A stretch of 64,000 nt of DNA from a phage, in the NCBI GenBank assembly GCA_036439915.1, contig GCA_036439915.1_3065.1; one strand, written 5' to 3'. The notes under the pieces were generated by a model, which worked only from the letters and a program-made list of their open reading frames with translations, was not told the DNA's origin and did no database searches. Made by a program: the position numbers and the translations under genes. Shown here piece by piece: positions 44,474 through 54,998 of the stretch. Positions within the stretch are counted from its first letter, which is position 1. Every line of letters begins with the position of its first letter.

Positions 44474-47400
44474 ATGGCCGAGATTAAAAGAAAGTTCAGA
44501 GCAGAAGATGGTCTGGACGCAGGTGGTGATAAAATAATCAACGTAGCTTTAGCTGATCGTGCCGTAGGAACTGACGGTGTTAACGTTGATTACTTAATTC
44601 AAGAAAACACAGTTCAACAATATGATCCAACTCGTGGATATTTAAAAGATTTTGTAATCATTTATGATAACCGCTTTTGGGCTGCTATAAATGATATTCC
44701 AAAACCAGCAGGAGCTTTTAATAGCGTACGATGGAGAGCGTTACGCACTGATGCAAACTGGACAACTGTTTCGTCAGGACCTTATCAATTAAAATCAGGC
44801 GAATCGATTTCAGTTAACACCGCAGCGGGTAATGACATTACATTTACTTTGCCATCTTCTCCAATTGATGGTGATACTATCGTTCTCCAAGATATTGGAG
44901 GAAAACCTGGAGTTAACCAGGTTTTAATTACAGCTCCGGTACAAAGCATTGTAAACTTTAGAGGTCAACAAGTACGCTCAGTACTAATGACTCATCCAAA
45001 ATCACAGATAGTTTTAATTTTTAGTAATCGTCTGTGGCAAATGTATGTTGCTGATTATAGCAGAGAAGCTGTAGTTGTAACACCGGCGAGTCTTTATCAG
45101 GCGCAATCAAACGATTTTATCGTGCGTAGATTTACTTCTGCTTCAGCAATTAATATTAAACTTCCTAGATTTGCTAATCATGGGGATATTATTAATTTTG
45201 TTGATTTAGATAAATTAAATCCGTTATATCATACTATCGTTACTACATACGATGAAACGACTTCAGTACAAGAAGTTGGAACTCATTCCATTGAAGGCCG
45301 TACATCTATTGATGGTTTCTTGATGTTTGATGATAATGAGAAATTGTGGAGATTGTTTGACGGGGATAGTAAAGCACGTTTACGCATTATAACGACTAAT
45401 TCTAATATTCGTCCAAATGAAGAAGTCATGGTATTTGGCGCGAATAATGGAACAACCCAAACAATTGAACTTCAGCTTCCAACTGATATTTCTATCGGTG
45501 ATACTGTTAAGATTTCCATGAATTATATGAGAAAAGGACAAACAGTTAAAATCAAAGCTGCCGGTGAAGATAAAATTGCTTCTTCAGTTCAATTGCTGCA
45601 ATTTCCAAAACGTTCAGAATACCCACCTGAAACTAAATGGGTGACTGTTCAAGAATTAGTTTTTAATGGCGAAACCAATTATGTTCCAGTTTTACAGCTT
45701 GCTTATATCGAAGATTCCGATGGAAAATATTGGGTTGTACAGCAAAACGTTCCAACTGTAGAAAGAGTAGACTCTTTAAATAATTCTACTAGAGCAAGAT
45801 TAGGCGTAATTGCTTTAGCTACACAGGCTCAAGCTAATGCTGATCTAGAAAATTCTCCACAAAAAGAACTGGCAATTACTCCAGAAACGTTAGCTAATCG
45901 TACTGCTACAGAAACTCGTAGAGGTATTGCAAGAATAGCAACAACTGCGCAAGTAAACCAGGATACCACATTCTCTTTTGCAGATGACCTTATCATCACT
46001 CCTAAAAAGTTGAATGAAAGAACTGCTACAGAAACTCGTAGGGGTGTCGCTGAAATTGCTACGCAGCAAGAAACAAACACAGGAACAGATGATACAACCA
46101 TCATTACTCCTAAAAAGCTTCAAGCTCGTCAAGGTTCTGAATCATTATCTGGTATTGTAACTTTTGTATCTACTGCAGGTGCTACTCCGGCTTCTAGCCG
46201 TGAATTAAATGGTACAAATGTTTATAATAAAAACACTAATAACTTAGTTGTTTCGCCAAAAGCTTTGGACCAGTATAAAGCTACGCCTACTCAACAGGGT
46301 GCAGTAATTTTAGCAGTTGAAAGTGAAGTAATTGCTGGACAAAGTCAGGAAGGATGGGCAAATGCTGTTGTAACGCCAGAAACGTTACATAAAAAGACAT
46401 CAACTGATGGAAGAATTGGTTTAATTGAAATTGCTACGCAAAGTGAAGTTAATACAGGAACTGATTATACTCGTGCAGTCACTCCTAAAACTTTAAATGA
46501 CCGTAGAGCAACTGAAAGTTTAAGTGGTATAGCTGAAATTGCTACACAAGTTGAATTCGACGCAGGCGTCGACGATACTCGTATCTCTACACCATTAAAA
46601 ATTAAAACTAGATTTAATAGTACTGATCGTACTTCTGTTGTTGCTCTATCTGGATTAGTTGAATCAGGAACTCTCTGGGACCATTATACCCTTAATATTC
46701 TTGAAGCAAATGAGACACAACGTGGTACACTTCGTGTGGCTACACAAGTTGAAGCTGCTGCTGGAAAATTAGATAATGTTTTAATAACTCCTAAAAAGCT
46801 TTTAGGTACTAAATCTACTGAAGCACAAGAAGGTGTTATTAAAGTTGCAACACAAACCGAAACTGTTGCTGGAACATCGGCAAATACTGCTGTATCTCCA
46901 AAAAATTTAAAATGGATTGTGCAGAGTGAACCTACTTGGGCAGCTACTACTGCAGTAAGAGGCTTTGTTAAAACTTCATCTGGTTCAATTACATTCGTTG
47001 GTAATGATACAGCCGGTTCTACTCAGGACTTAGAGCTATACGAGAAAAATAGCTATGCAGTATCACCATACGAATTAAACCGTGTATTAGCAAATTATTT
47101 GCCATTAAAAGCAAAAGCTGCAGATAGTAATTTATTGGATGGTCTAGATTCATCTCAGTTCATTCGTAGGGATATTGCGCAGACGGTTAATGGTTCACTA
47201 ACCTTAACTCAACAAACGAATCTGAGTGCCCCTCTTGTATCATCTAGTACTGCTACGTTCGGTGGATCAGTTTCAGCAAATAGTACATTAACTATTTCTA
47301 ATACTGGAACAGCAACTCGATTGATTTTTGAGAAAGGACCTCAAACTGGAACAAACCCAGCCCAAACGATGACTGTTAGAGTGTGGGGAAATCAATTTAG

Positions 47401-48343
47401 TGGGGAATTAGATACAACACGTTCTACCGTATTTGAAGTTAGTGATGAAACATCTAGTCATTTTTATTCTCAGCGCAATAAAGCCGGAAATATAACATTT
47501 AATATCAACGGTACAGTAACACCGATAAATGTTAATGCTTCAGGAACATTGAATGCAAATGGCGTAGCAACATTTGGTAATTCAGTCACTGCAACTGGTG
47601 AAATTATTTCTCGAAGCGCAAATGCTTTCCGTGCTATTAACGGAAATTACGGTTTCATTGTTCGCAATGATGGATCAGTAACGAATTTTATGCTTACTGC
47701 ATCGGGTGATCAGACTGGTGGATTTAATGGATTACGCCCATTAGCTATTAATAATGCATCTGGCCAAGTAACGATTGGTGAAAGCTTAATCATTGCCAAA
47801 GGTGCTACTATAAATTCAGGTGGTTTGACTGTTAACTCGAGAATTCGTTCTCAAGGTACTAAAACATCTGACTTATATACACGTGCGCCAACATCTGATA
47901 CTGTAGGATTCTGGTCAATTGATATTAACGATTCAGCTACTTATAACCAGTTCCCAGGTTATTTTAAAATGGTTGAAAAAACTAATGAAGTGACTGGTCT
48001 TCCATATTTAGAACGTGGCGAAGAAGTTAAATCTCCTGGTACACTGACTCAGTTTGGTAACACACTTGATTCGCTTTACCAAGATTGGATTACTTATCCA
48101 ACAACGCCAGAGGCGCGTACCACTCGCTGGACACGTACATGGCAGAAAACCAAAAATTCTTGGTCAAGTTTTGTTCAGGTATTTGATGGAGGTAACCCTC
48201 CTCAACCGTCTGATATCGGTGCTTTACCATCTGATAATGCTACAATGGGTAATCTTACTATTCGTGATTTCTTACGAATTGGTAATGTTCGCATTATTCC
48301 TGACCCAGTGAATAAAACTGTTAAATTTGAATGGGTTGAATAA
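44474..48343 (+). CDS. 34: Long tail fibre proximal subunit gp34
   Basis: 1289 aa (T4 gp34 length). Confidence 0.9.
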   Translation: MAEIKRKFRAEDGLDAGGDKIINVALADRAVGTDGVNVDYLIQENTVQQYDPTRGYLKDFVIIYDNRFWAAINDIPKPAGAFNSVRWRALRTDANWTTVSSGPYQLKSGESISVNTAAGNDITFTLPSSPIDGDTIVLQDIGGKPGVNQVLITAPVQSIVNFRGQQVRSVLMTHPKSQIVLIFSNRLWQMYVADYSREAVVVTPASLYQAQSNDFIVRRFTSASAINIKLPRFANHGDIINFVDLDKLNPLYHTIVTTYDETTSVQEVGTHSIEGRTSIDGFLMFDDNEKLWRLFDGDSKARLRIITTNSNIRPNEEVMVFGANNGTTQTIELQLPTDISIGDTVKISMNYMRKGQTVKIKAAGEDKIASSVQLLQFPKRSEYPPETKWVTVQELVFNGETNYVPVLQLAYIEDSDGKYWVVQQNVPTVERVDSLNNSTRARLGVIALATQAQANADLENSPQKELAITPETLANRTATETRRGIARIATTAQVNQDTTFSFADDLIITPKKLNERTATETRRGVAEIATQQETNTGTDDTTIITPKKLQARQGSESLSGIVTFVSTAGATPASSRELNGTNVYNKNTNNLVVSPKALDQYKATPTQQGAVILAVESEVIAGQSQEGWANAVVTPETLHKKTSTDGRIGLIEIATQSEVNTGTDYTRAVTPKTLNDRRATESLSGIAEIATQVEFDAGVDDTRISTPLKIKTRFNSTDRTSVVALSGLVESGTLWDHYTLNILEANETQRGTLRVATQVEAAAGKLDNVLITPKKLLGTKSTEAQEGVIKVATQTETVAGTSANTAVSPKNLKWIVQSEPTWAATTAVRGFVKTSSGSITFVGNDTAGSTQDLELYEKNSYAVSPYELNRVLANYLPLKAKAADSNLLDGLDSSQFIRRDIAQTVNGSLTLTQQTNLSAPLVSSSTATFGGSVSANSTLTISNTGTATRLIFEKGPQTGTNPAQTMTVRVWGNQFSGELDTTRSTVFEVSDETSSHFYSQRNKAGNITFNINGTVTPINVNASGTLNANGVATFGNSVTATGEIISRSANAFRAINGNYGFIVRNDGSVTNFMLTASGDQTGGFNGLRPLAINNASGQVTIGESLIIAKGATINSGGLTVNSRIRSQGTKTSDLYTRAPTSDTVGFWSIDINDSATYNQFPGYFKMVEKTNEVTGLPYLERGEEVKSPGTLTQFGNTLDSLYQDWITYPTTPEARTTRWTRTWQKTKNSWSSFVQVFDGGNPPQPSDIGALPSDNATMGNLTIRDFLRIGNVRIIPDPVNKTVKFEWVE
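45839..46934 (+). repeat. Tandem ~35-aa coding repeats in the gp34 shaft
   Basis: About 8 units of pattern ITPKKL...ATE..G.A.IATQ.E.N.GTDDT. Confidence 0.6.
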
Positions 48344-48351
48344 GAGGTATT

Positions 48352-49467
48352 ATGGAAAAATTTATGGCAGAGTTTGGACAAGGATATGTCCAAACGCCAT
48401 TTTTATCGGAAAGCAATTCAGTAAGATATAAAATAAGCATAGCGGGTTCTTGCCCGCTTTCTACAGCAGGACCATACGTTAAATTTCAAGATAATCCTGT
48501 AGGAAGTCAAACATTTAGTGCAGGTCTTCATTTAAGAGTTTTTGACCCTTCTACAGGAGCATTGGTTGATAGTAAGTCATATGTTTTTTCTACTTCAAAT
48601 GATACAACATCTGCTGCTTTTGTTAGTTTCATGAATTCTTTTTCAAGCAATAGACTTGTTGCTATATTAACTAGCGGAAAGGTTAATTTTCCTCCTGAAG
48701 TAGTATCTTGGTTAAGAACGGCAGGAACATCTGCTTTTCCATCTGATTCTTTATTGTCAAGATTTGACGTATCATATGCTGCCTTTTACACTTCTTCTAA
48801 AAGAGCTATCGCACTAGAGCATGTTAAACTGAGTAACAGAAAAAGCACAGATGACTATCAAACTATATTAGATGTAGTATTTGATAGTTTAGAAGATGTT
48901 GGAGCGACAGGATTTCCTAAAAGAACATATGAAAGCGTTGAGCAATTTATGTCAGCTGTTGGTGGAACTAATAACGAAATTGCATGTCTACCTACAGCAT
49001 CTGCAATAAGTAAACTTTCTGACTATAATTTAATTCCTGGAGATGTTCTTTATCTTAAAGCACAACTATATGCTGATGCTGATTTATTAGCGTTGGGAAC
49101 TACTAATATTTCAATTCGTTTTTATAATGCGTCGAATGGATATATTTCCTCGACACAAGCTGAGTTTACCGGACAAGCTGGGTCTTGGGAATTAAAAGAA
49201 GATTATGTAGTTGTTCCAGAAAATGCAGTTGGATTTACGATATACGCACAGAGAACTGCACAAGCGGGTCAAGGCGGTATGAGAAATTTAAGCTTTTCTG
49301 AAGTGTCAAGAAATGGTGGCATTTCAAAACCTGCTGAGTTTGGCGTCAATGGTATTCGAGTTAATTATATCTGTGAATCTGCTTCACCTCCGGATATAAT
49401 GGTACTTCCTACGCAAGCATCGTCTAAAACTGGTAAAGTGTTTGGACAGGAATTTAGAGAAGTTTAA
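48352..49467 (+). CDS. 35: Tail fibre hinge protein gp35
   Basis: 371 aa, directly after gene 34. Confidence 0.85.
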   Translation: MEKFMAEFGQGYVQTPFLSESNSVRYKISIAGSCPLSTAGPYVKFQDNPVGSQTFSAGLHLRVFDPSTGALVDSKSYVFSTSNDTTSAAFVSFMNSFSSNRLVAILTSGKVNFPPEVVSWLRTAGTSAFPSDSLLSRFDVSYAAFYTSSKRAIALEHVKLSNRKSTDDYQTILDVVFDSLEDVGATGFPKRTYESVEQFMSAVGGTNNEIACLPTASAISKLSDYNLIPGDVLYLKAQLYADADLLALGTTNISIRFYNASNGYISSTQAEFTGQAGSWELKEDYVVVPENAVGFTIYAQRTAQAGQGGMRNLSFSEVSRNGGISKPAEFGVNGIRVNYICESASPPDIMVLPTQASSKTGKVFGQEFREV

Positions 49468-49472
49468 ATTGA

Positions 49473-49499
49473 GGGAGCCTTCGGGTTCCCTTTTTCTTT
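49473..49499 (+). terminator. Terminator-like hairpin after gene 35
   Basis: Stem GGGAGCC / GGTTCCC with TTCG loop and T-run; overlaps late promoter for gene 36. Confidence 0.5.
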
Positions 49500-49506
49500 A
49501 TAAATA
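49499..49506 (+). promoter_or_regulatory. T4-type late promoter (TATAAATA) for gene 36
   Basis: Exact TATAAATA about 24 nt upstream of gene 36 ATG. Confidence 0.55.
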
Positions 49507-49529
49507 CTATTAAAATAAAGGGGCATACA

Positions 49530-50186
49530 ATGGCTGATTTAAAAGTAGGTTCAACAACTGGAGGCTCTGTCATTTGGCATCAAGGAAATTTTCCATTGAA
49601 TCCAGCCGGTGACGATGTACTCTATAAATCATTTAAAATATATTCAGAATATAATAAACCACAAGCTGCTGATAACGATTTCGTTTCTAAAGCTAATGGT
49701 GGTACATATTTAAATAAAGTAATTTTTAATAAAGGAATGACTGTTCCTGGTGCTGGGTCAGGTGACAACGGTATTTTTGCCGGTCCTGGTGATAATGCTA
49801 CATATGATACTACAAATATGGATATTGTTTCATGGTATGGTATCGGCTTTAAATCATCACAAGGGGCAGCAGGTAGAACTGTAGTAATTAACACACGAAA
49901 CGGAGATATTAGCTCAAAGGGTGTAATTGAAGCATCACAAATACGCGCAACTTCGTTATCACCAGTAAATAATTATGACCTTACGAGAAAAGATTATGTT
50001 GATGGAGCAATAAATATTGTTACAACAAATGCAAACTCTAGAGTATTACGCTCTGGAGACACTATGACAGGAAATTTAACTGCGCCAAACCTTTTTTCAC
50101 AGAATCCTGCATCTCAACCCTCGCATGTTCCGCGATTTGACCAAATCGTAATTAAGGATTCTGTTCAAGATTTCGGCTATTATTAA
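49530..50186 (+). CDS. 36: Tail fibre distal connector gp36
   Basis: 218 aa, position as in T4. Confidence 0.85.
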   Translation: MADLKVGSTTGGSVIWHQGNFPLNPAGDDVLYKSFKIYSEYNKPQAADNDFVSKANGGTYLNKVIFNKGMTVPGAGSGDNGIFAGPGDNATYDTTNMDIVSWYGIGFKSSQGAAGRTVVINTRNGDISSKGVIEASQIRATSLSPVNNYDLTRKDYVDGAINIVTTNANSRVLRSGDTMTGNLTAPNLFSQNPASQPSHVPRFDQIVIKDSVQDFGYY

Positions 50187-50194
50187 GAGGACTT

Positions 50195-53100
50195 ATGGCT
50201 ACTTTAAAACAAATACAATTTAAAAGAAGCAAAACGGCAGGTCAACGTCCAGCTGCTTCAGTATTAGCCGAAGGTGAATTGGCTATAAACTTAAAAGATC
50301 GTGTACTTTTTACTAAAGATGATCAAGGAAATATTATTGACTTAGGTTTTGCTAAAGGCGGTAGTATTGATGGGAATGTTATTCATAAAGGCAATTATAA
50401 CCAAACTGGCGATTATACTTTAAACGGTACATTCGCCCAGACTGGTAATTTTAATTTAACCGGTATTGCTCGAGTAACTCGTGATATTATTGCTGCTGGG
50501 CAGATTATGACTGAAGGCGGAGAACTTATTACAAAAAGTTCAGGAACGGCACACGTTCGTTTTCATGATTCCGCCGACCGTGAACGCGGTATTATTTTTT
50601 CTCCTGCTAATGACGGTTTAACTACACAAGTAGTTAACATCAGAGTTCAAGATTACAAAGCTGGTTCAGAAAGCACTTTCGCTTTTAATGGAAATGGTTT
50701 GTTTTCTTCACCAGAAGTTTTTGGGTGGAAATCTGTATCAACTCCGGTAATTTATACCAATAAAGTTATCACCAATAAAAAAGTTAAAGATGATTATGAC
50801 ATCTATTCGATGGCAGACAATGTTCCATTGTCTGAAAGCACTACTGCTATTAATCATCTTCGTGTTATGCGTAATGCAGTTGGTTCTGGTATTTTCCATG
50901 AAGTTAAAGATAATGATGGAATAACATGGTATAGTGGAGATGGATTAGACGCTTATCTTTGGTCATTTACTTGGAGCGGCGGAATTAAATCAAGTCACTC
51001 AATTTCCATCGGTTTAACACCCGGACCTAAGGATTACTCAATATTAGGACCGTCTAGTATCGCTTTAGGAGATAATGATACTGGATTTAAATGGCATCAA
51101 GACGGATATTATTTCAGTGTTAACAATGGCACAAAAACGTTTTTATTTAGTCCCAGCGAAACAACTAGCCTAAGAAAATTTGTAGCTGGATATTCTACTA
51201 ACGGAACCGATTTAACTACTCCTCCAACTGAAAATTATGCTCTTGCTACTGTAGTGACATACCATGATAATAACGCGTTTGGGGATGGTCAGACTCTTTT
51301 AGGATATTATCAAGGCGGTAACTATCATCATTATTTCCGCGGCAAGGGCACTACAAACATTAATACTCACGGCGGTTTGTTAGTTACTCCAGGCAATATT
51401 GACGTTATTGGTGGTTCTGTTAATATCGATGGTAGAAATAATGCTTCTACAGCGATGTTTAAAGGTAACACAACAGGTAGTAGTTCTGTGGATAACATGA
51501 CAATTTCTGTGTGGGGTAATACATTTACTAATCCTAGCGAAGGTAATCGCAAAAATGTCATGGAAATTTCCGATGCAACTAGCTGGATGAGCTATATTCA
51601 AAGACTTACTACTGGTGAAGTAGAAATGAACGTTAACGGTTCATTTGAATCATCTGGTGTTACTGCTGGAAATAGAGGAGTTCACACAACAGGCGAAATT
51701 TCATCTGGAGCAGTGAATGCTCTTCGCATTTGGAATGCAGATTATGGAGCCATTTTTAGACGTTCAGAAGGTAGTCTTCATATTATTCCAACTGCTTATG
51801 GTGAAGGCAAAAATGGTGATATTGGTCCACTTCGTCCATTTAGCATAGCTTTAGATACTGGTAAGGTTGTTATTCCAGATTTAGAATCAAGTTATAACAC
51901 GTTTGCTGCAAATGGCTACATTAAATTTGCTGGTCATGGGGCTGGTGCCGGCGGTTATGATATTCAGTATTCACAAGCTGCTCCTATTTTCCAAGAAATC
52001 GATGATGCTGCTGTAAGCAAATATTATCCTATTGTTAAACAGAAGTTTTTAAACGGTAAAGCTGTCTGGTCTTTAGGTACTGAAATTAATTCAGGTACAT
52101 TTGTTTTACATCATCTAAAAGAAGATGGTTCACAAGGCCATACATCAAGATTTAATGCTGATGGTACAGTTAATTTCCCCGATAATGTTCAAGTCGGCGG
52201 CGGTGAAGCTACTATTGCTCGTAATGGTAATATCTTCTCTGATATTTGGAAAACATTTACTTCTGCCGGAGAAACCACAAATATTCGCGATGCAATAGCT
52301 ACTCGTGTTTCTAAAGAAGGCGACACGATGACTGGTAAATTGACTTTATCAGCAGGCAATGATGCTCTCGTTTTAACTGCGGGCGAAGGTGCTTCATCAC
52401 ATATCCGTAGTGATGTAGGTGGTACAAATAACTGGTATATAGGCAAAGGTGGCGGCGACAGCGGTCTAGGTTTTTACAGTTACATTACACAGGGTGGTGT
52501 ATACATAACAAATAACGGCGAAATATCGCTTTCTCCTCAAGGTCAAGGAACATTTAATTTTAATAGAGATCGCATTCATATAAATGGCACACAATGGACT
52601 GCACACCAAGCTGGTGATTGGGGAAACCAATGGCGACAAGAAGCGCCGATATTTGTAGATTTTGGCAATGTCGGTAATGATAGTTATTACCCGATTATCA
52701 AAGGAAAATCTGGTATTACTAATGAAGGATACATATCGGGTGTTGATTTTGGTATGCGACGCACTACTAACCAATGGGCTCAGGCTATTATCCGTGTTGG
52801 TAACCAGGAAAATGGTTCTGACCCACAAGCTATCTATGAATTTCACCACAATGGAGTTCTGTATGCTCCTAATATGGTTCAAGCTGGAGCAAGATTATCA
52901 GCTGGCGGTGGTGACCCTGTATGGACCGGCCCGTGTCTTGTTATTGGTGATAATGATACTGGATTAGTTCATGGTGGTGACGGCCGAATCAATATGGTTG
53001 CAAATGGTGTGCATATTGCTTCGTGGTCTTCATCTTATCAGTCTCATCCTGGCCTTTGGGATTCAAACGGTGCTTTTTGGACAGAAGTTGGAAGAGCTAT

Positions 53101-53506
53101 CGTTTCTCATGGGCATCTCGTTCAGGCAAATGATAGTTATTCAACGTTTGTCCGTGATGTTTATGTCCGTTCTGATATTCGTGTTAAAAAGGACCTAGTT
53201 AAATTTGAAAATGCTTCTGAGAAGCTTTCAAAAATTAATGGTTACACTTATATGCAGAAGCGAGGCCTAGATGAAGAAGGTAATCAGAAATGGGAACCAA
53301 ACGCTGGGTTAATTGCTCAAGAAGTTCAAGCTATTTTACCTGAATTGGTTGAAGGCGATCAGGATAGTGAAGCTTTACTTCGTTTGAACTATAACGGTGT
53401 AATTGGTTTAAATACAGCTGCAATCAATGAGCATACTGCAGAAATTGCAGAACTTAAGTCAGAGATTGAAGAGCTTAAAAAATTAGTTAAATCATTGTTA
53501 AAATAA
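50195..53506 (+). CDS. 37: Long tail fibre distal subunit gp37 with C-terminal intramolecular-chaperone-like domain
   Basis: 1103 aa; C-terminal ~110 aa has coiled-coil tail [21 protein letters not shown] typical of auto-cleaved chaperone domains. Confidence 0.85.
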
Positions 53507-53537
53507 AATGAGGGGCTTCGGCCCCTTGGAGGTTTAT

Positions 53538-54311
53538 ATGGCAGTTGAAGGACCGTGGGTAGGATGGTCTGCGAGGGTACAAACTGGAGACCCTTGGATG
53601 GGTGGTGCCGCACAGAGATTGAGAATGGGAATTCCGTTTTGGATGAGTAATATGATAGGTCGATCTGTTGAAGTAATTCACACGCTTGGAGCAGACCATA
53701 ACTTCAATGGTCAATGGTTCCGAGATAGATGTTTTGAGGCAGGTAGTACACCTATAGTGTTTAATATCACTGGAGATTTAGTATCATATTCTAAAGATGT
53801 TCCTTTATTCTTCATGTACGGAGATACACCGAATGAATATGTTCAGTTGAATATACACGGCGTAACGATGTATGGACGTGGCGGGAATGGCGGTAGCAAT
53901 AGTCCCGGATCGGCTGGGGGTCATTGTATTCAAAATGATATTGGTGGAAGACTAAGAATTAATAATGGCGGAGCTATTGCAGGCGGCGGTGGCGGCGGCG
54001 GCGGCGGTAACTACGGTAGACTATCATTTGGTGGTGGTGGTGGTCGCCCATTCGGTGCTGGCGGGTCTTCCTCTCATATGGGTGCTGGTGCAACCGCTGG
54101 CACCATTTCCGCTCCGGGTGCAGGATCTGTCGGTAAGGGGTCTCTTTGGGTATATACAGGCGGGAATGGCGGTGAAGTTGGCTCAGCAGGAGGTAGATGT
54201 AATATTCATGGGAACGGTACAGAATATAACGGTGGTGCTGCTGGTTATGCCGTCATAGGGTCTACACCGACATGGCAAAACGTTGGAGCAATATATGGTC
54301 CAAGAGTATAA
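53538..54311 (+). CDS. 38: T2-type tail fibre tip adhesin gp38
   Basis: 257 aa from MAVEGPW (SD GGAGG); Gly-rich motifs alternating with variable segments. Confidence 0.85.
53982..54045 (+). repeat. GGC/GGT triplet runs encoding poly-Gly in gp38
   Basis: ggcggcggtggcggcggcggcggcggt and ggtggtggtggtggt. Confidence 0.7.
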
Positions 54312-54341
54312 TTTGAATAAATATCCTTAAAAGGAGGGTCT

Positions 54342-54998
54342 ATGGCAGCACCTAGAATATCATTTTCGCCCTCTGATATTCTGTTGGGTGTTCTAGATCG
54401 CTTGTTCAAAGATAACGCTACCGGGAAGGTTCTTGCTTCCCGAGTAGCTGTCGTAATTCTTTTGTTTATAATGGCGATTGTTTGGTATAGGGGAGATAGT
54501 TTCTTTGAGTACTATAAGCAATCAAAGTATGAAACATACAGTGAAATTATTGAAAAGGAAAGAAATGCACGCTTTGAATCTGTCGCCCTGGAACAACTCC
54601 AGATAGTTCACATATCATCTGAGGCAGACTTTAGTGCGGTGTATTCTTTCCGCCCTAAAAACTTAAACTATTTTGTTGATATTATAGCATATGAAGGAAA
54701 ATTACCTTCAACAATAAGCGAAAAATCACTTGGAGGATATCCTGTTGATAAAACTATGGATGAATATACAGTTCATTTAAATGGACGTCATTATTATTCC
54801 AACTCAAAATTTGCTTTTTTACCAACTAAAAAGCCTACTCCCGAAATAAATTACATGTACAGTTGTCCATATTTCAATTTGGATAATATCTATGCTGGAA
54901 CAATAACCATGTACTGGTATAGAAATGATCATATAAGTAATGACCGCCTTGAATCAATATGTTCTCAGGCGGCCAGAATATTAGGAAGGGCTAAATAA
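54342..54998 (+). CDS. t: Holin T
   Basis: 218 aa (T4 holin length); N-terminal TM segment VAVVILLFIMAIVWY; large periplasmic domain. Confidence 0.9.
   Translation: MAAPRISFSPSDILLGVLDRLFKDNATGKVLASRVAVVILLFIMAIVWYRGDSFFEYYKQSKYETYSEIIEKERNARFESVALEQLQIVHISSEADFSAVYSFRPKNLNYFVDIIAYEGKLPSTISEKSLGGYPVDKTMDEYTVHLNGRHYYSNSKFAFLPTKKPTPEINYMYSCPYFNLDNIYAGTITMYWYRNDHISNDRLESICSQAARILGRAK

Follow-up and report, generated by a model that had tools for sequence, protein, structure and literature searches.

The receptor-recognition end of the long tail fibre of T2/T6-like E. coli phages is well studied, and its architecture, its fold, its self-cleaving chaperone and its recombination mechanism have all been published. 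In phage S16, the gp37-gp38 tip of which has been solved (PDB 6F45; Dunne et al. 2018), the last 113 residues of gp37 are removed by a cut at DLNVS^SDRRIKK (PMC7917993), and for T2 and T6, proteolytic processing of gp37 followed by capping with gp38 has been reported (PMC3157838). Conserved tryptophans of gp38 have a role in attachment to gp37 (PMC6851490). With regard to receptors, phages FL12 and FL18 require OmpA (PMC12032242), a swap of the EV240 gp38 confers OmpA specificity, and in RB68 a single substitution in a hypervariable segment (HVS), Q206L, changes the receptor from OmpF to OmpW (both bioRxiv 10.64898/2026.04.02.716166). For phage SP1, K-12 single-gene mutants revealed no receptor, and adsorption is periodate-sensitive (bioRxiv 10.1101/2022.07.04.498734).

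The window, i.e. the whole 64,000-nucleotide stretch of phage DNA that was analysed, is of Tequatrovirus type and shares approximately 97% identity with phages JY01 and Sf23. Very probably, the locus at 50195-54311 encodes the distal, receptor-recognising part of the long tail fibre in a Tequatrovirus of the T2/T6 type, including a self-cleaving gp37, a gp38 cap and a mosaic ancestry; as a type of locus it is ordinary. Its genes and the elements flanking them are as follows:

49499-49506, forward strand: TATAAATA late-promoter consensus, upstream of gene 36, 24 nt before the ATG
50195-53506, forward strand: gene 37 (1103 aa), after the genes for gp34, gp35 and gp36; stop codon at 53504-53506
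53509-53528, forward strand: intercistronic RNA hairpin given by folding (8-bp stem, UUCG loop), between the gene 37 stop and the gene 38 Shine-Dalgarno
53538-54311, forward strand: gene 38 (257 aa), stop codon included
54342-54998, forward strand: gene t, holin (PF11031, E 8e-118), the canonical neighbour 3' of gene 38

Indeed, the open reading frame list and Pfam give the gene order 34-35-36-37-38-t, in which gene 38 has gene 37 before it and the holin gene after it, as in the T-even long-tail-fibre operon; the same 37-38-t order is found in T2, T6, AR1, Sf23 and Ac3. The TATAAATA copy upstream of gene 36 is the likely start of the 36-37-38 late transcript, judged from its position and T4 precedent only; across the window the motif is not enriched (11 found for 9.4 expected). 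Gene 38 is listed as a longer open reading frame (53508-54311, 267 aa), but its start was reassigned to the ATG at 53538, 5 nt downstream of a GGAGG (53528-53532), a start from which homologues are also annotated; the ATG at 53508 has no Shine-Dalgarno and falls inside the intercistronic hairpin. This hairpin is also present in T2, T6, HMD-9, EV240 and T4, with differing stem and loop sequences. Antisense and out-of-frame open reading frames across 50195-54311, which nothing supports, were discarded. No NCBIfam model matches gp37 or gp38. The exact gp37 and gp38 proteins are already present in NCBI, and the gp38 has no exact match in any phage record.

Gene 37 is divided into two parts:

50195-53170, forward strand: predicted mature part of gp37 (residues 1-992), the trimeric distal half-fibre (open reading frame, Pfam, structure matches)
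53171-53503, forward strand: intramolecular chaperone of gp37 (residues 993-1103, 111 aa; PF13884 and S16 gp37 alignment)

The N-terminal ~640 residues of gp37 align with gp37 of T4 and T2, residues 449-551 correspond to a Gp34_trimer-like domain, and residues 914-1103 match the tip and chaperone of S16 gp37 (6f45_A, E 4e-43), a shorter protein; by analogy, residues 914-992 would be the tip on which gp38 docks. The initial annotation had described a gp37 of 1103 residues whose last ~110 residues resemble auto-cleaved chaperones. This is borne out by a Peptidase_S74 domain (PF13884) at residues 993-1052 (E 1.2e-12; 48.4 bits, cut-off 22), followed by a heptad-repeat C-terminal helix, part of which is encoded by a 21-nt tandem repeat (53439-53478). 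The domain contains the motif Ser993-Asp-Ile-Arg-Val-Lys998, in which the lysine lies five residues after the serine; this S-D-x-R-x-K motif and the two-protein architecture are shared with S16, and the domain aligns with the self-cleaving chaperone of S16 gp37. The window sequence DVYVR^SDIRVKK aligns with the S16 cleavage site, and T2 gp37, the classical example of processing, has VYIRSDIRLK at the equivalent site (31% identity over the C-terminus, including VY(V/I)RSDIR(V/L)K), although it is longer (1341 aa). These alignments predict a cut between Arg992 and Ser993, and in line with the MEROPS S74/endosialidase literature we take Ser993 and Lys998 to be the catalytic dyad. The chaperones of the endosialidase/T5 pb1 type (PF13884) are similarly placed C-terminally after a trimeric beta-helix, with Ser and Lys five apart and a helical bundle next, but the window domain is remote from them in sequence. 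Among solved structures, a sequence search with this region found only S16 gp37 and, as a weak match, the self-cleaving domain of Peptidase_S74 type in MYRF (7dc3, E 0.012). The AF2 model of the C-terminal 230 residues as a single monomer was poor (mean pLDDT 43, with confidence confined to the last helix); the fold search was therefore dropped, and the argument is carried by the sequence homology with 6f45_A.

Gene 38 comprises three domains:

53538-53669, forward strand: N-terminal attachment domain (residues 1-44; PF21721, E 5e-20)
53670-53873, forward strand: beta-helix domain (residues 45-112), conserved among relatives
53874-54311, forward strand: specificity domain (residues 113-257) and stop codon (structure matches, alignment, AF2)

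Judged from its sequence and its modelled fold, gp38 is a full-length T2/T6-type adhesin, with a three-tryptophan attachment domain and a beta-helix/polyglycine-II fold. Indeed, (i) Gp38_N (PF21721) matches residues 1-40 (72 bits, cut-off 25) and GP38 (PF05268) residues 45-257 (232 bits, cut-off 25), the latter with an E-value (7e-69) that rules out a chance match, (ii) the sequence matches PP01 gp38 (9v85, E 7e-79) and, over its full length, S16 gp38 (6f45_D, E 1e-52), with which it shares the three domains and the tryptophans, and (iii) the AF2 model (pLDDT 88.8, three N-terminal helices) matches only these two structures, namely 9v85 (rmsd 1.9 A over 223 columns, TM 0.83 by target, 67% structural-alignment identity) and 6f45_D (TM 0.74-0.76). 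The three tryptophans, W7, W20 and W35, do not vary in an alignment of 10 sequences; in a wider set of 74 diverse adhesins W7 again never varies, and conservation of W20 and W35 is at least 90%. Glycine accounts for 25% of gp38 and for 36% of residues 113-257, where glycine motifs form the core of a polyglycine-II sandwich from which hypervariable loops project (GSNSPGS, NYGRLSF, SSSHMGA... and two further loops, as defined for PP01 gp38 in PMC12892980). The poly-Gly motifs split by variable segments that had initially been noted in a 257-residue gp38 are all found in the translation, including the three that were quoted, and the alternation of motifs and segments is visible in the alignment. 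The variable segments had also been proposed as the likely host-range determinants, which agrees with the literature on S16, T2, PP01 and the FL/EV240 phages. By homology with S16, PP01, FL12 and EV240, gp38 would be carried on the virion and would bind an outer-membrane receptor.

Only the name and position of the gene would fit the T4 scheme, where gp38 serves solely as an assembly chaperone that is missing from the virion and the receptor is bound by the tip of gp37; some public records are indeed labelled 'distal long tail fiber assembly catalyst'. However, BLASTP of gp38 against the 183-aa T4 gp38 gave no similarity (best E 1.4 over 9 residues), which refutes this reading at the sequence level, the C-terminal 460 residues of gp37 do not significantly match the needle domain of T4, and gp38 aligns over its full length with adhesins that crystallography shows in place on the gp37 tip. 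A T4-type arrangement is thus considered practically negligible, and the initial identification of gp38 as a T2/T6-type adhesin distinct from the T4 chaperone holds.

For the adhesin arrangement, homology with S16 and T2 suggests the following assembly. The 1103-residue gp37 would trimerise with the aid of its own C-terminal chaperone (residues 993-1103), which would release itself between Arg992 and Ser993 through the Ser993/Lys998 dyad, and this cleavage would expose a flat beta-helix tip. One gp38 monomer (257 aa) would then cap the tip, docking by its N-terminal three-helix domain with W7, W20 and W35 inserted in pockets of gp37. In the model, the remainder of gp38 forms a short beta-helix bearing the polyglycine-II sandwich made of the glycine runs, and the five hypervariable loops on this sandwich would bind an outer-membrane protein.

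The module is recombinant: gp37 is of the JY01/Sf23 type, as is the attachment domain of gp38, and the specificity half of gp38 belongs to the Ac3/HMD-9/FL12 lineage. The JY01/Sf23 lineage has adhesins of its own that are AR1/PP01-like (OmpC type). The attachment domain is 100% identical to those of Sf23, Ac3 and FL18. The nearest relative changes from JY01/Sf23 to HMD-9 within the beta-helix domain, HMD-9 being nearly identical from 53685 on and Sf23/JY01 diverging sharply from 53891. A further exchange is visible in gene 37:

52795-53170, forward strand: patch of different ancestry in gene 37, at the fibre tip just 5' of the cleavage site

This patch is 74-93% identical to JY01/Sf23, against mostly ~100% to one or both for the rest of gene 37, and its best match is phage NBEco003 (97%). 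AR1 shares the fibre backbone (gp37; 94% DNA identity across the module) and has a similar gp38 attachment domain (82% protein identity), and PP01/AR1 gp38 (OmpC of O157) has the same fold, but identity falls to 56% in the specificity domain, where each receptor loop has another sequence and four of the five also have another length. S16, a user of Salmonella OmpC, is more distant (~44% identity in gp38, other hypervariable loops). T2 gp38 is only 46% identical overall, and the window phage is therefore not a close T2 relative; the gp38 lies within the Ac3/T6/FL12 branch. The 'T2-type' label given initially is thus right for the adhesin class (T2/T6) and for the class of mechanism, but not for the nearest kinship; the T2 receptors are FadL/OmpF.

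Two glycine runs stand out in the specificity domain:

53982-54008, forward strand: 9-Gly run (residues 149-157), imperfect GGC/GGT triplets
54030-54044, forward strand: 5-Gly run (residues 165-169), (GGT)5

The GGC/GGT triplet runs that had been noted inside gene 38 are confirmed by Tandem Repeats Finder (GGC x8.7 at 53982-54007; TGG x5.3 at 54029-54044), and both are short. They had also been called slippage-prone, and their presence could suggest a contingency-type element that alters adhesin length and host range by slippage; the first run does span 4 to 9 glycines across distant adhesin subtypes, and one homologue of the same type, P0103, has 4 glycines instead of 9. An IMG/VR scan gave 17 loci, too few for statistics on the runs, and a protein search was therefore added. 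Despite synonymous variation, the first run has exactly 9 glycines in 45 of 46 adhesins of the same HVS type, and the second has 5 in all 46, as in nearly all of the 129 proteins surveyed. Since the codons vary freely (GGC/GGT/GGA) and the length does not, purifying selection appears to act on length, and this conservation among relatives argues against slippage-driven variability. The longest perfect triplet repeat has only 5 units, the codons of the 9-Gly run being interrupted (GGC GGC GGT GGC GGC GGC GGC GGC GGT), and the equivalent runs in the S16 and PP01 structures are core polyglycine-II helices in a saturated hydrogen-bond lattice. Furthermore, the variation actually seen is recombinational, with breakpoints in conserved sequence and, in L015, a duplication of one HVS+GRM unit; recombination in conserved stretches both next to and inside the glycine motifs is a documented route, according to the account of Tetart 1998 in PMC3157838. 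Slippage as a source of host-range variation is hence very improbable here.

With respect to the receptor, similarity of the loops points, with moderate confidence, to OmpA as the most likely candidate. In residues 113-257, the gp38 is 93% identical to FL12 and EV240, 84% to FL18 and 80% to T6/FL23 (Tsx), against 56% for AR1 (OmpC), 50% for T2 and 46% for RB51 (OmpF); OmpA is proposed because the specificity half is 93% identical to two OmpA-requiring adhesins and only 46-56% to OmpC, OmpF and FadL types. The OmpA-dependent 'type 2' adhesins FL12, EV240 and FL18 (a group that also includes FL20) and Ac3, which are 84-93% identical in the specificity domain, share the loop lengths and both glycine runs with the window. 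FL12 and EV240 carry another attachment domain, which goes with a different gp37. The loops nevertheless differ from these adhesins in sequence (NYGRLSF for NRGRLVF, SLWVY for SLSAY, NIHGNG for NTHGAG), with about 10 residue substitutions relative to FL12 and EV240 and one residue that is unique to the window:

54135-54137, forward strand: AAG codon of Lys200, in the loop that corresponds to loop-D of PP01 (alignment)

Each of the eight aligned adhesins with this loop segment has Glu at position 200, among them UoN_LDJ77_1, HMD-9, F25, Ac3, FL12, EV240 and FL18.

These differences leave a tentative place for a receptor that is not OmpA, or not OmpA alone, within the same adhesin architecture: another porin, one specific allele of OmpA or a carbohydrate of the LPS. 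Besides the ~10 loop substitutions and K200, such a reading draws on the fact that one residue is enough to switch receptor in the gp38 family, on the Tsx-type adhesins, which are still 80% identical in the specificity domain, and on SP1, the specificity half of which has 97.8% DNA identity to that of the window and for which the K-12 mutants and periodate gave the results cited above. Against it, the three closest receptor-tested adhesins are all OmpA users, the loop lengths and a 4-residue insertion equivalent to loop-D are common to the OmpA types and not to the Tsx, OmpC or OmpF types, and in published phylogenies close gp38 relatives share receptors. The window shares the loops NYGRLSF/SLWVY/NIHGNG with HMD-9, UoN_LDJ77_1, IME340 and SP1, and it may be speculated, as a rather unlikely case, that this subgroup binds a non-K-12-type OmpA, another porin or an LPS sugar, and that E200K is a recent host-range mutation. 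If its target were indeed other than K-12 OmpA, the recombinant would combine a fibre backbone of the O157/Shigella type and a new specificity.

In summary, the locus decides which E. coli strains the phage adsorbs to, which gives it a practical value only, and the loop sequences of gp38 yield a testable receptor prediction, namely OmpA. The mosaic is a further natural example of a gp38 specificity half swapped onto a different fibre backbone, a route that is now used to re-target T-even phages.

The region 44474-54998 encodes, according to the ORF listing and Pfam, gp34, gp35, gp36, an 1103-aa protein, a glycine-rich ORF and a T holin match, all on the + strand:

within 44474-54998, + strand, gp34, 1289 aa
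48352-49467, + strand, gp35 (hinge protein), 371 aa
within 44474-54998, + strand, gp36, 218 aa
50195-53506, + strand, gp37 (distal long-tail-fibre protein), 1103 aa
53538-54311, + strand, glycine-rich ORF (gp38, tip adhesin), 257 aa
within 44474-54998, + strand, T holin, 218 aa (PF11031, E 8e-118)

Residues 58-127 of gp35 match PF15711, the Pfam domain ILEI (interleukin-like EMT inducer fold), with 31 bits, just over the cut-off of 27. The start of gene 38 is ATG 53538, located 5 nt downstream of GGAGG and equivalent to the start from which the homologues of phages Ac3 and UoN_LDJ77_1 are annotated; it yields the 257 aa given in the initial annotation. The ATG at 53508 (mechanical ORF, 267 aa) was rejected as a start, being devoid of a ribosome-binding site and situated inside a hairpin. 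This stable hairpin (53509-53528; 8-bp stem, UUCG tetraloop) lies between the stop codon of gene 37 and the Shine-Dalgarno sequence of gene 38, its 3' end touching the first G of GGAGG. A hairpin is kept at this position in T2/FL12, T6, HMD-9, EV240 and even T4 with differing stem and loop sequences, so that a conserved function, in mRNA stability or translational coupling, is suggested. No statistical enrichment of the late-promoter motif was found across the window.

The protein gp38 has every sequence-testable property of the T2/T6-type gp38 adhesin family, as initially annotated, and lacks that of the T4-type assembly chaperone. Indeed (i) it matches the Pfam families GP38 (E 7e-69) and Gp38_N (E 5e-20), (ii) among solved structures it matches the receptor-binding domain of PP01 gp38 (9v85, E 7e-79) and, over residues 1-254, the full-length gp38 of Salmonella phage S16 (6f45_D, E 1e-52), and (iii) its AlphaFold2 model (74 homologues, mean pLDDT 88.8) is matched by Foldseek to 9v85 (rmsd 1.9 A, TM 0.83 by target) and 6f45_D (TM 0.74-0.76), with no structure other than these gp38 entries below E = 1. 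BLASTP against the 183-aa T4 gp38 chaperone, an alignment to which would have spoken against the adhesin reading, gave no match (best E 1.4 over 9 residues), and an NCBIfam search found no family for gp38 or gp37. The three glycine motifs quoted initially are all present in the translation, whose glycine content is 25% overall and 36% in residues 113-257.

The first ~640 residues of gp37 align with T4 and T2 gp37 (33-35% identity) and include a Gp34_trimer-like domain (residues 449-551); its C-terminus does not significantly match the needle tip of T4. This C-terminus has every sequence-testable property of a Peptidase_S74 intramolecular chaperone: residues 993-1052 match the Pfam 'chaperone of endosialidase' domain (48 bits, cut-off 22) and a wider stretch, residues 914-1103, can be aligned with the S16 gp37 tip construct solved by crystallography (6f45_A, E 4e-43). 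Ser993 and Lys998, which we take to be the S74 dyad of the endosialidase literature, show its S-x4-K spacing. S16 gp37 is reported to shed its last 113 residues by self-cleavage at DLNVS^SDRRIKK, baring the gp38 docking surface (PMC7917993). Because this site corresponds to DVYVR^SDIRVKK in the HMMER alignment, a cut is predicted between Arg992 and Ser993, releasing 111 residues, close to the last ~110 residues noted initially; T2 gp37 has VYIRSDIRLK at the equivalent position. The tail of the chaperone is a heptad helix, part of which is encoded by a 21-nt tandem repeat (53439-53478, Tandem Repeats Finder). Single-sequence AF2 of the C-terminus gave a poor model, with the C-terminal helix as its sole confident part.

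By homology with the S16 crystal structure (PMC6851490), one gp38 would cap the trimeric gp37 tip, docking via three N-terminal helices, each presenting one tryptophan. All three tryptophans (W7, W20, W35) are invariant across 10 aligned sequences; in an alignment of 74, this holds for W7, with W20 and W35 reaching at least 90% conservation. The glycine-rich motifs (GRMs) would form a three-layer polyglycine-II (PGII) sandwich and the hypervariable segments (HVSs) distal receptor-binding loops.

A sliding comparison with relatives revealed that the module is mosaic. Over 25 kb, phages JY01 and Sf23 share ~97% identity with the window, and no phage record was found to match the complete module at 99% or above. 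Most of gene 37 has ~100% identity to JY01, Sf23 or both, save for 52795-53170 (residues ~868-992, the fibre tip directly before the cleavage site), where the best match is NBEco003 (97%) as against 74-93% for JY01/Sf23; this patch differs in ancestry from the rest of gene 37 and makes a second site of recombination within the module. Gene 38 is dissimilar to HMD-9 through 53684 and nearly identical from 53685, whereas it is near-identical to Sf23/JY01 to about 53880 and diverges sharply from 53891, directly past the first glycine motif, GRGGNG. From these two switches, the attachment domain (residues 1-44) matches the JY01/Sf23 fibre and the specificity half (residues 113-257) is of a different, HMD-9/UoN_LDJ77_1/Ac3 type; the adhesins of Sf23 and JY01 themselves are AR1/PP01-like, of the OmpC type. 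The gene 38 mosaic is a modular exchange at conserved motifs, as described by Tetart et al. 1998 and Trojet et al. 2011. In a 303-aa database protein (P0098), encoded on a 25.7-kb contig in an E. coli assembly, the N-terminal ~150 residues are those of a gp38 adhesin, to the poly-Gly run, and are fused to a gp37-like tip and Peptidase_S74 chaperone; this protein reflects either a genuine rearrangement at the glycine motif or a chimera of the assembly.

The GGC/GGT runs at 53982-54045 had been considered slippage-prone. The triplet runs are real (Tandem Repeats Finder: GGC x8.7 at 53982-54007, TGG x5.3 at 54029-54044), but both are short, the first is interrupted (GGC GGC GGT GGC GGC GGC GGC GGC GGT; the second is (GGT)5), and their lengths are conserved: among proteins of the same HVS type, the first has exactly 9 Gly in 45 of 46 and the second 5 Gly in all 46. 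In 16 gene sequences, GGC, GGT and GGA codons vary freely while run lengths follow the adhesin type, which points to purifying selection on run length and fits their role as PGII helices of the core. In a survey of 129 cluster representatives, nearly all had 5 Gly in the second run, and the first varied from 4 to 9 when distant subtypes were compared; occasional in-frame indels have clearly taken place in the course of evolution. The sole recent-looking length change found is in an IMG/VR locus (L015, UViG_2974787500, 1501-2331), whose 277-aa gp38 has a whole HVS+GRM unit duplicated in tandem (YYSPFSQMRLTF-GGGGG-YYSPFSQMRLTF); this Tsx-type adhesin is thus a naturally occurring variant with a doubled loop, produced by unequal recombination and not by triplet slippage.

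The receptor was approached by aligning gp38 with adhesins of receptor-tested phages, residues 113-257 being scored on their own.

Identity of gp38 residues 113-257 to adhesins of known receptor
FL12, OmpA, 93%
EV240, OmpA, 93%
FL18, OmpA, 84%
FL23 / T6, Tsx, 80-81%
AR1, OmpC, 56%
T2, FadL/OmpF, 50%
RB51, OmpF, 46%

FL12 and FL18 lose plating on ompA deletion (PMC12032242), and EV240 gp38 confers OmpA specificity on a Tsx-dependent phage (bioRxiv 10.64898/2026.04.02.716166). The loop lengths of gp38, including a four-residue insertion in the PP01 loop-D equivalent, are common to the OmpA group only. From this likeness, OmpA is the candidate receptor, at a moderate level of confidence somewhat above an even chance. 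Confidence is kept moderate because ~ten loop residues differ between this subgroup (NYGRLSF, SLWVY, NIHGNG) and FL12/EV240, because Lys200 (AAG, 54135-54137, in the PP01 loop-D equivalent) is Glu in every aligned adhesin having this segment, because single HVS changes can switch receptor, such as RB68 Q206L (bioRxiv 10.64898/2026.04.02.716166), and because K-12 mutants gave no identifiable receptor for SP1 (bioRxiv 10.1101/2022.07.04.498734), whose specificity half shares 97.8% DNA identity. The E-to-K charge reversal at 200, by which alone this gp38 differs in amino-acid sequence from that of UoN_LDJ77_1, is a possible host-range mutation.

The exact 1103-aa and 257-aa proteins are present in NCBI (EOK6610691.1; EOK6610692.1, 'receptor-recognizing protein'). 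They share a 165,642-bp contig listed as Escherichia coli, so that the window is probably part of a complete T-even phage genome contained in a bacterial assembly. The gp37/gp38 module is a textbook system, correctly read in the initial annotation.
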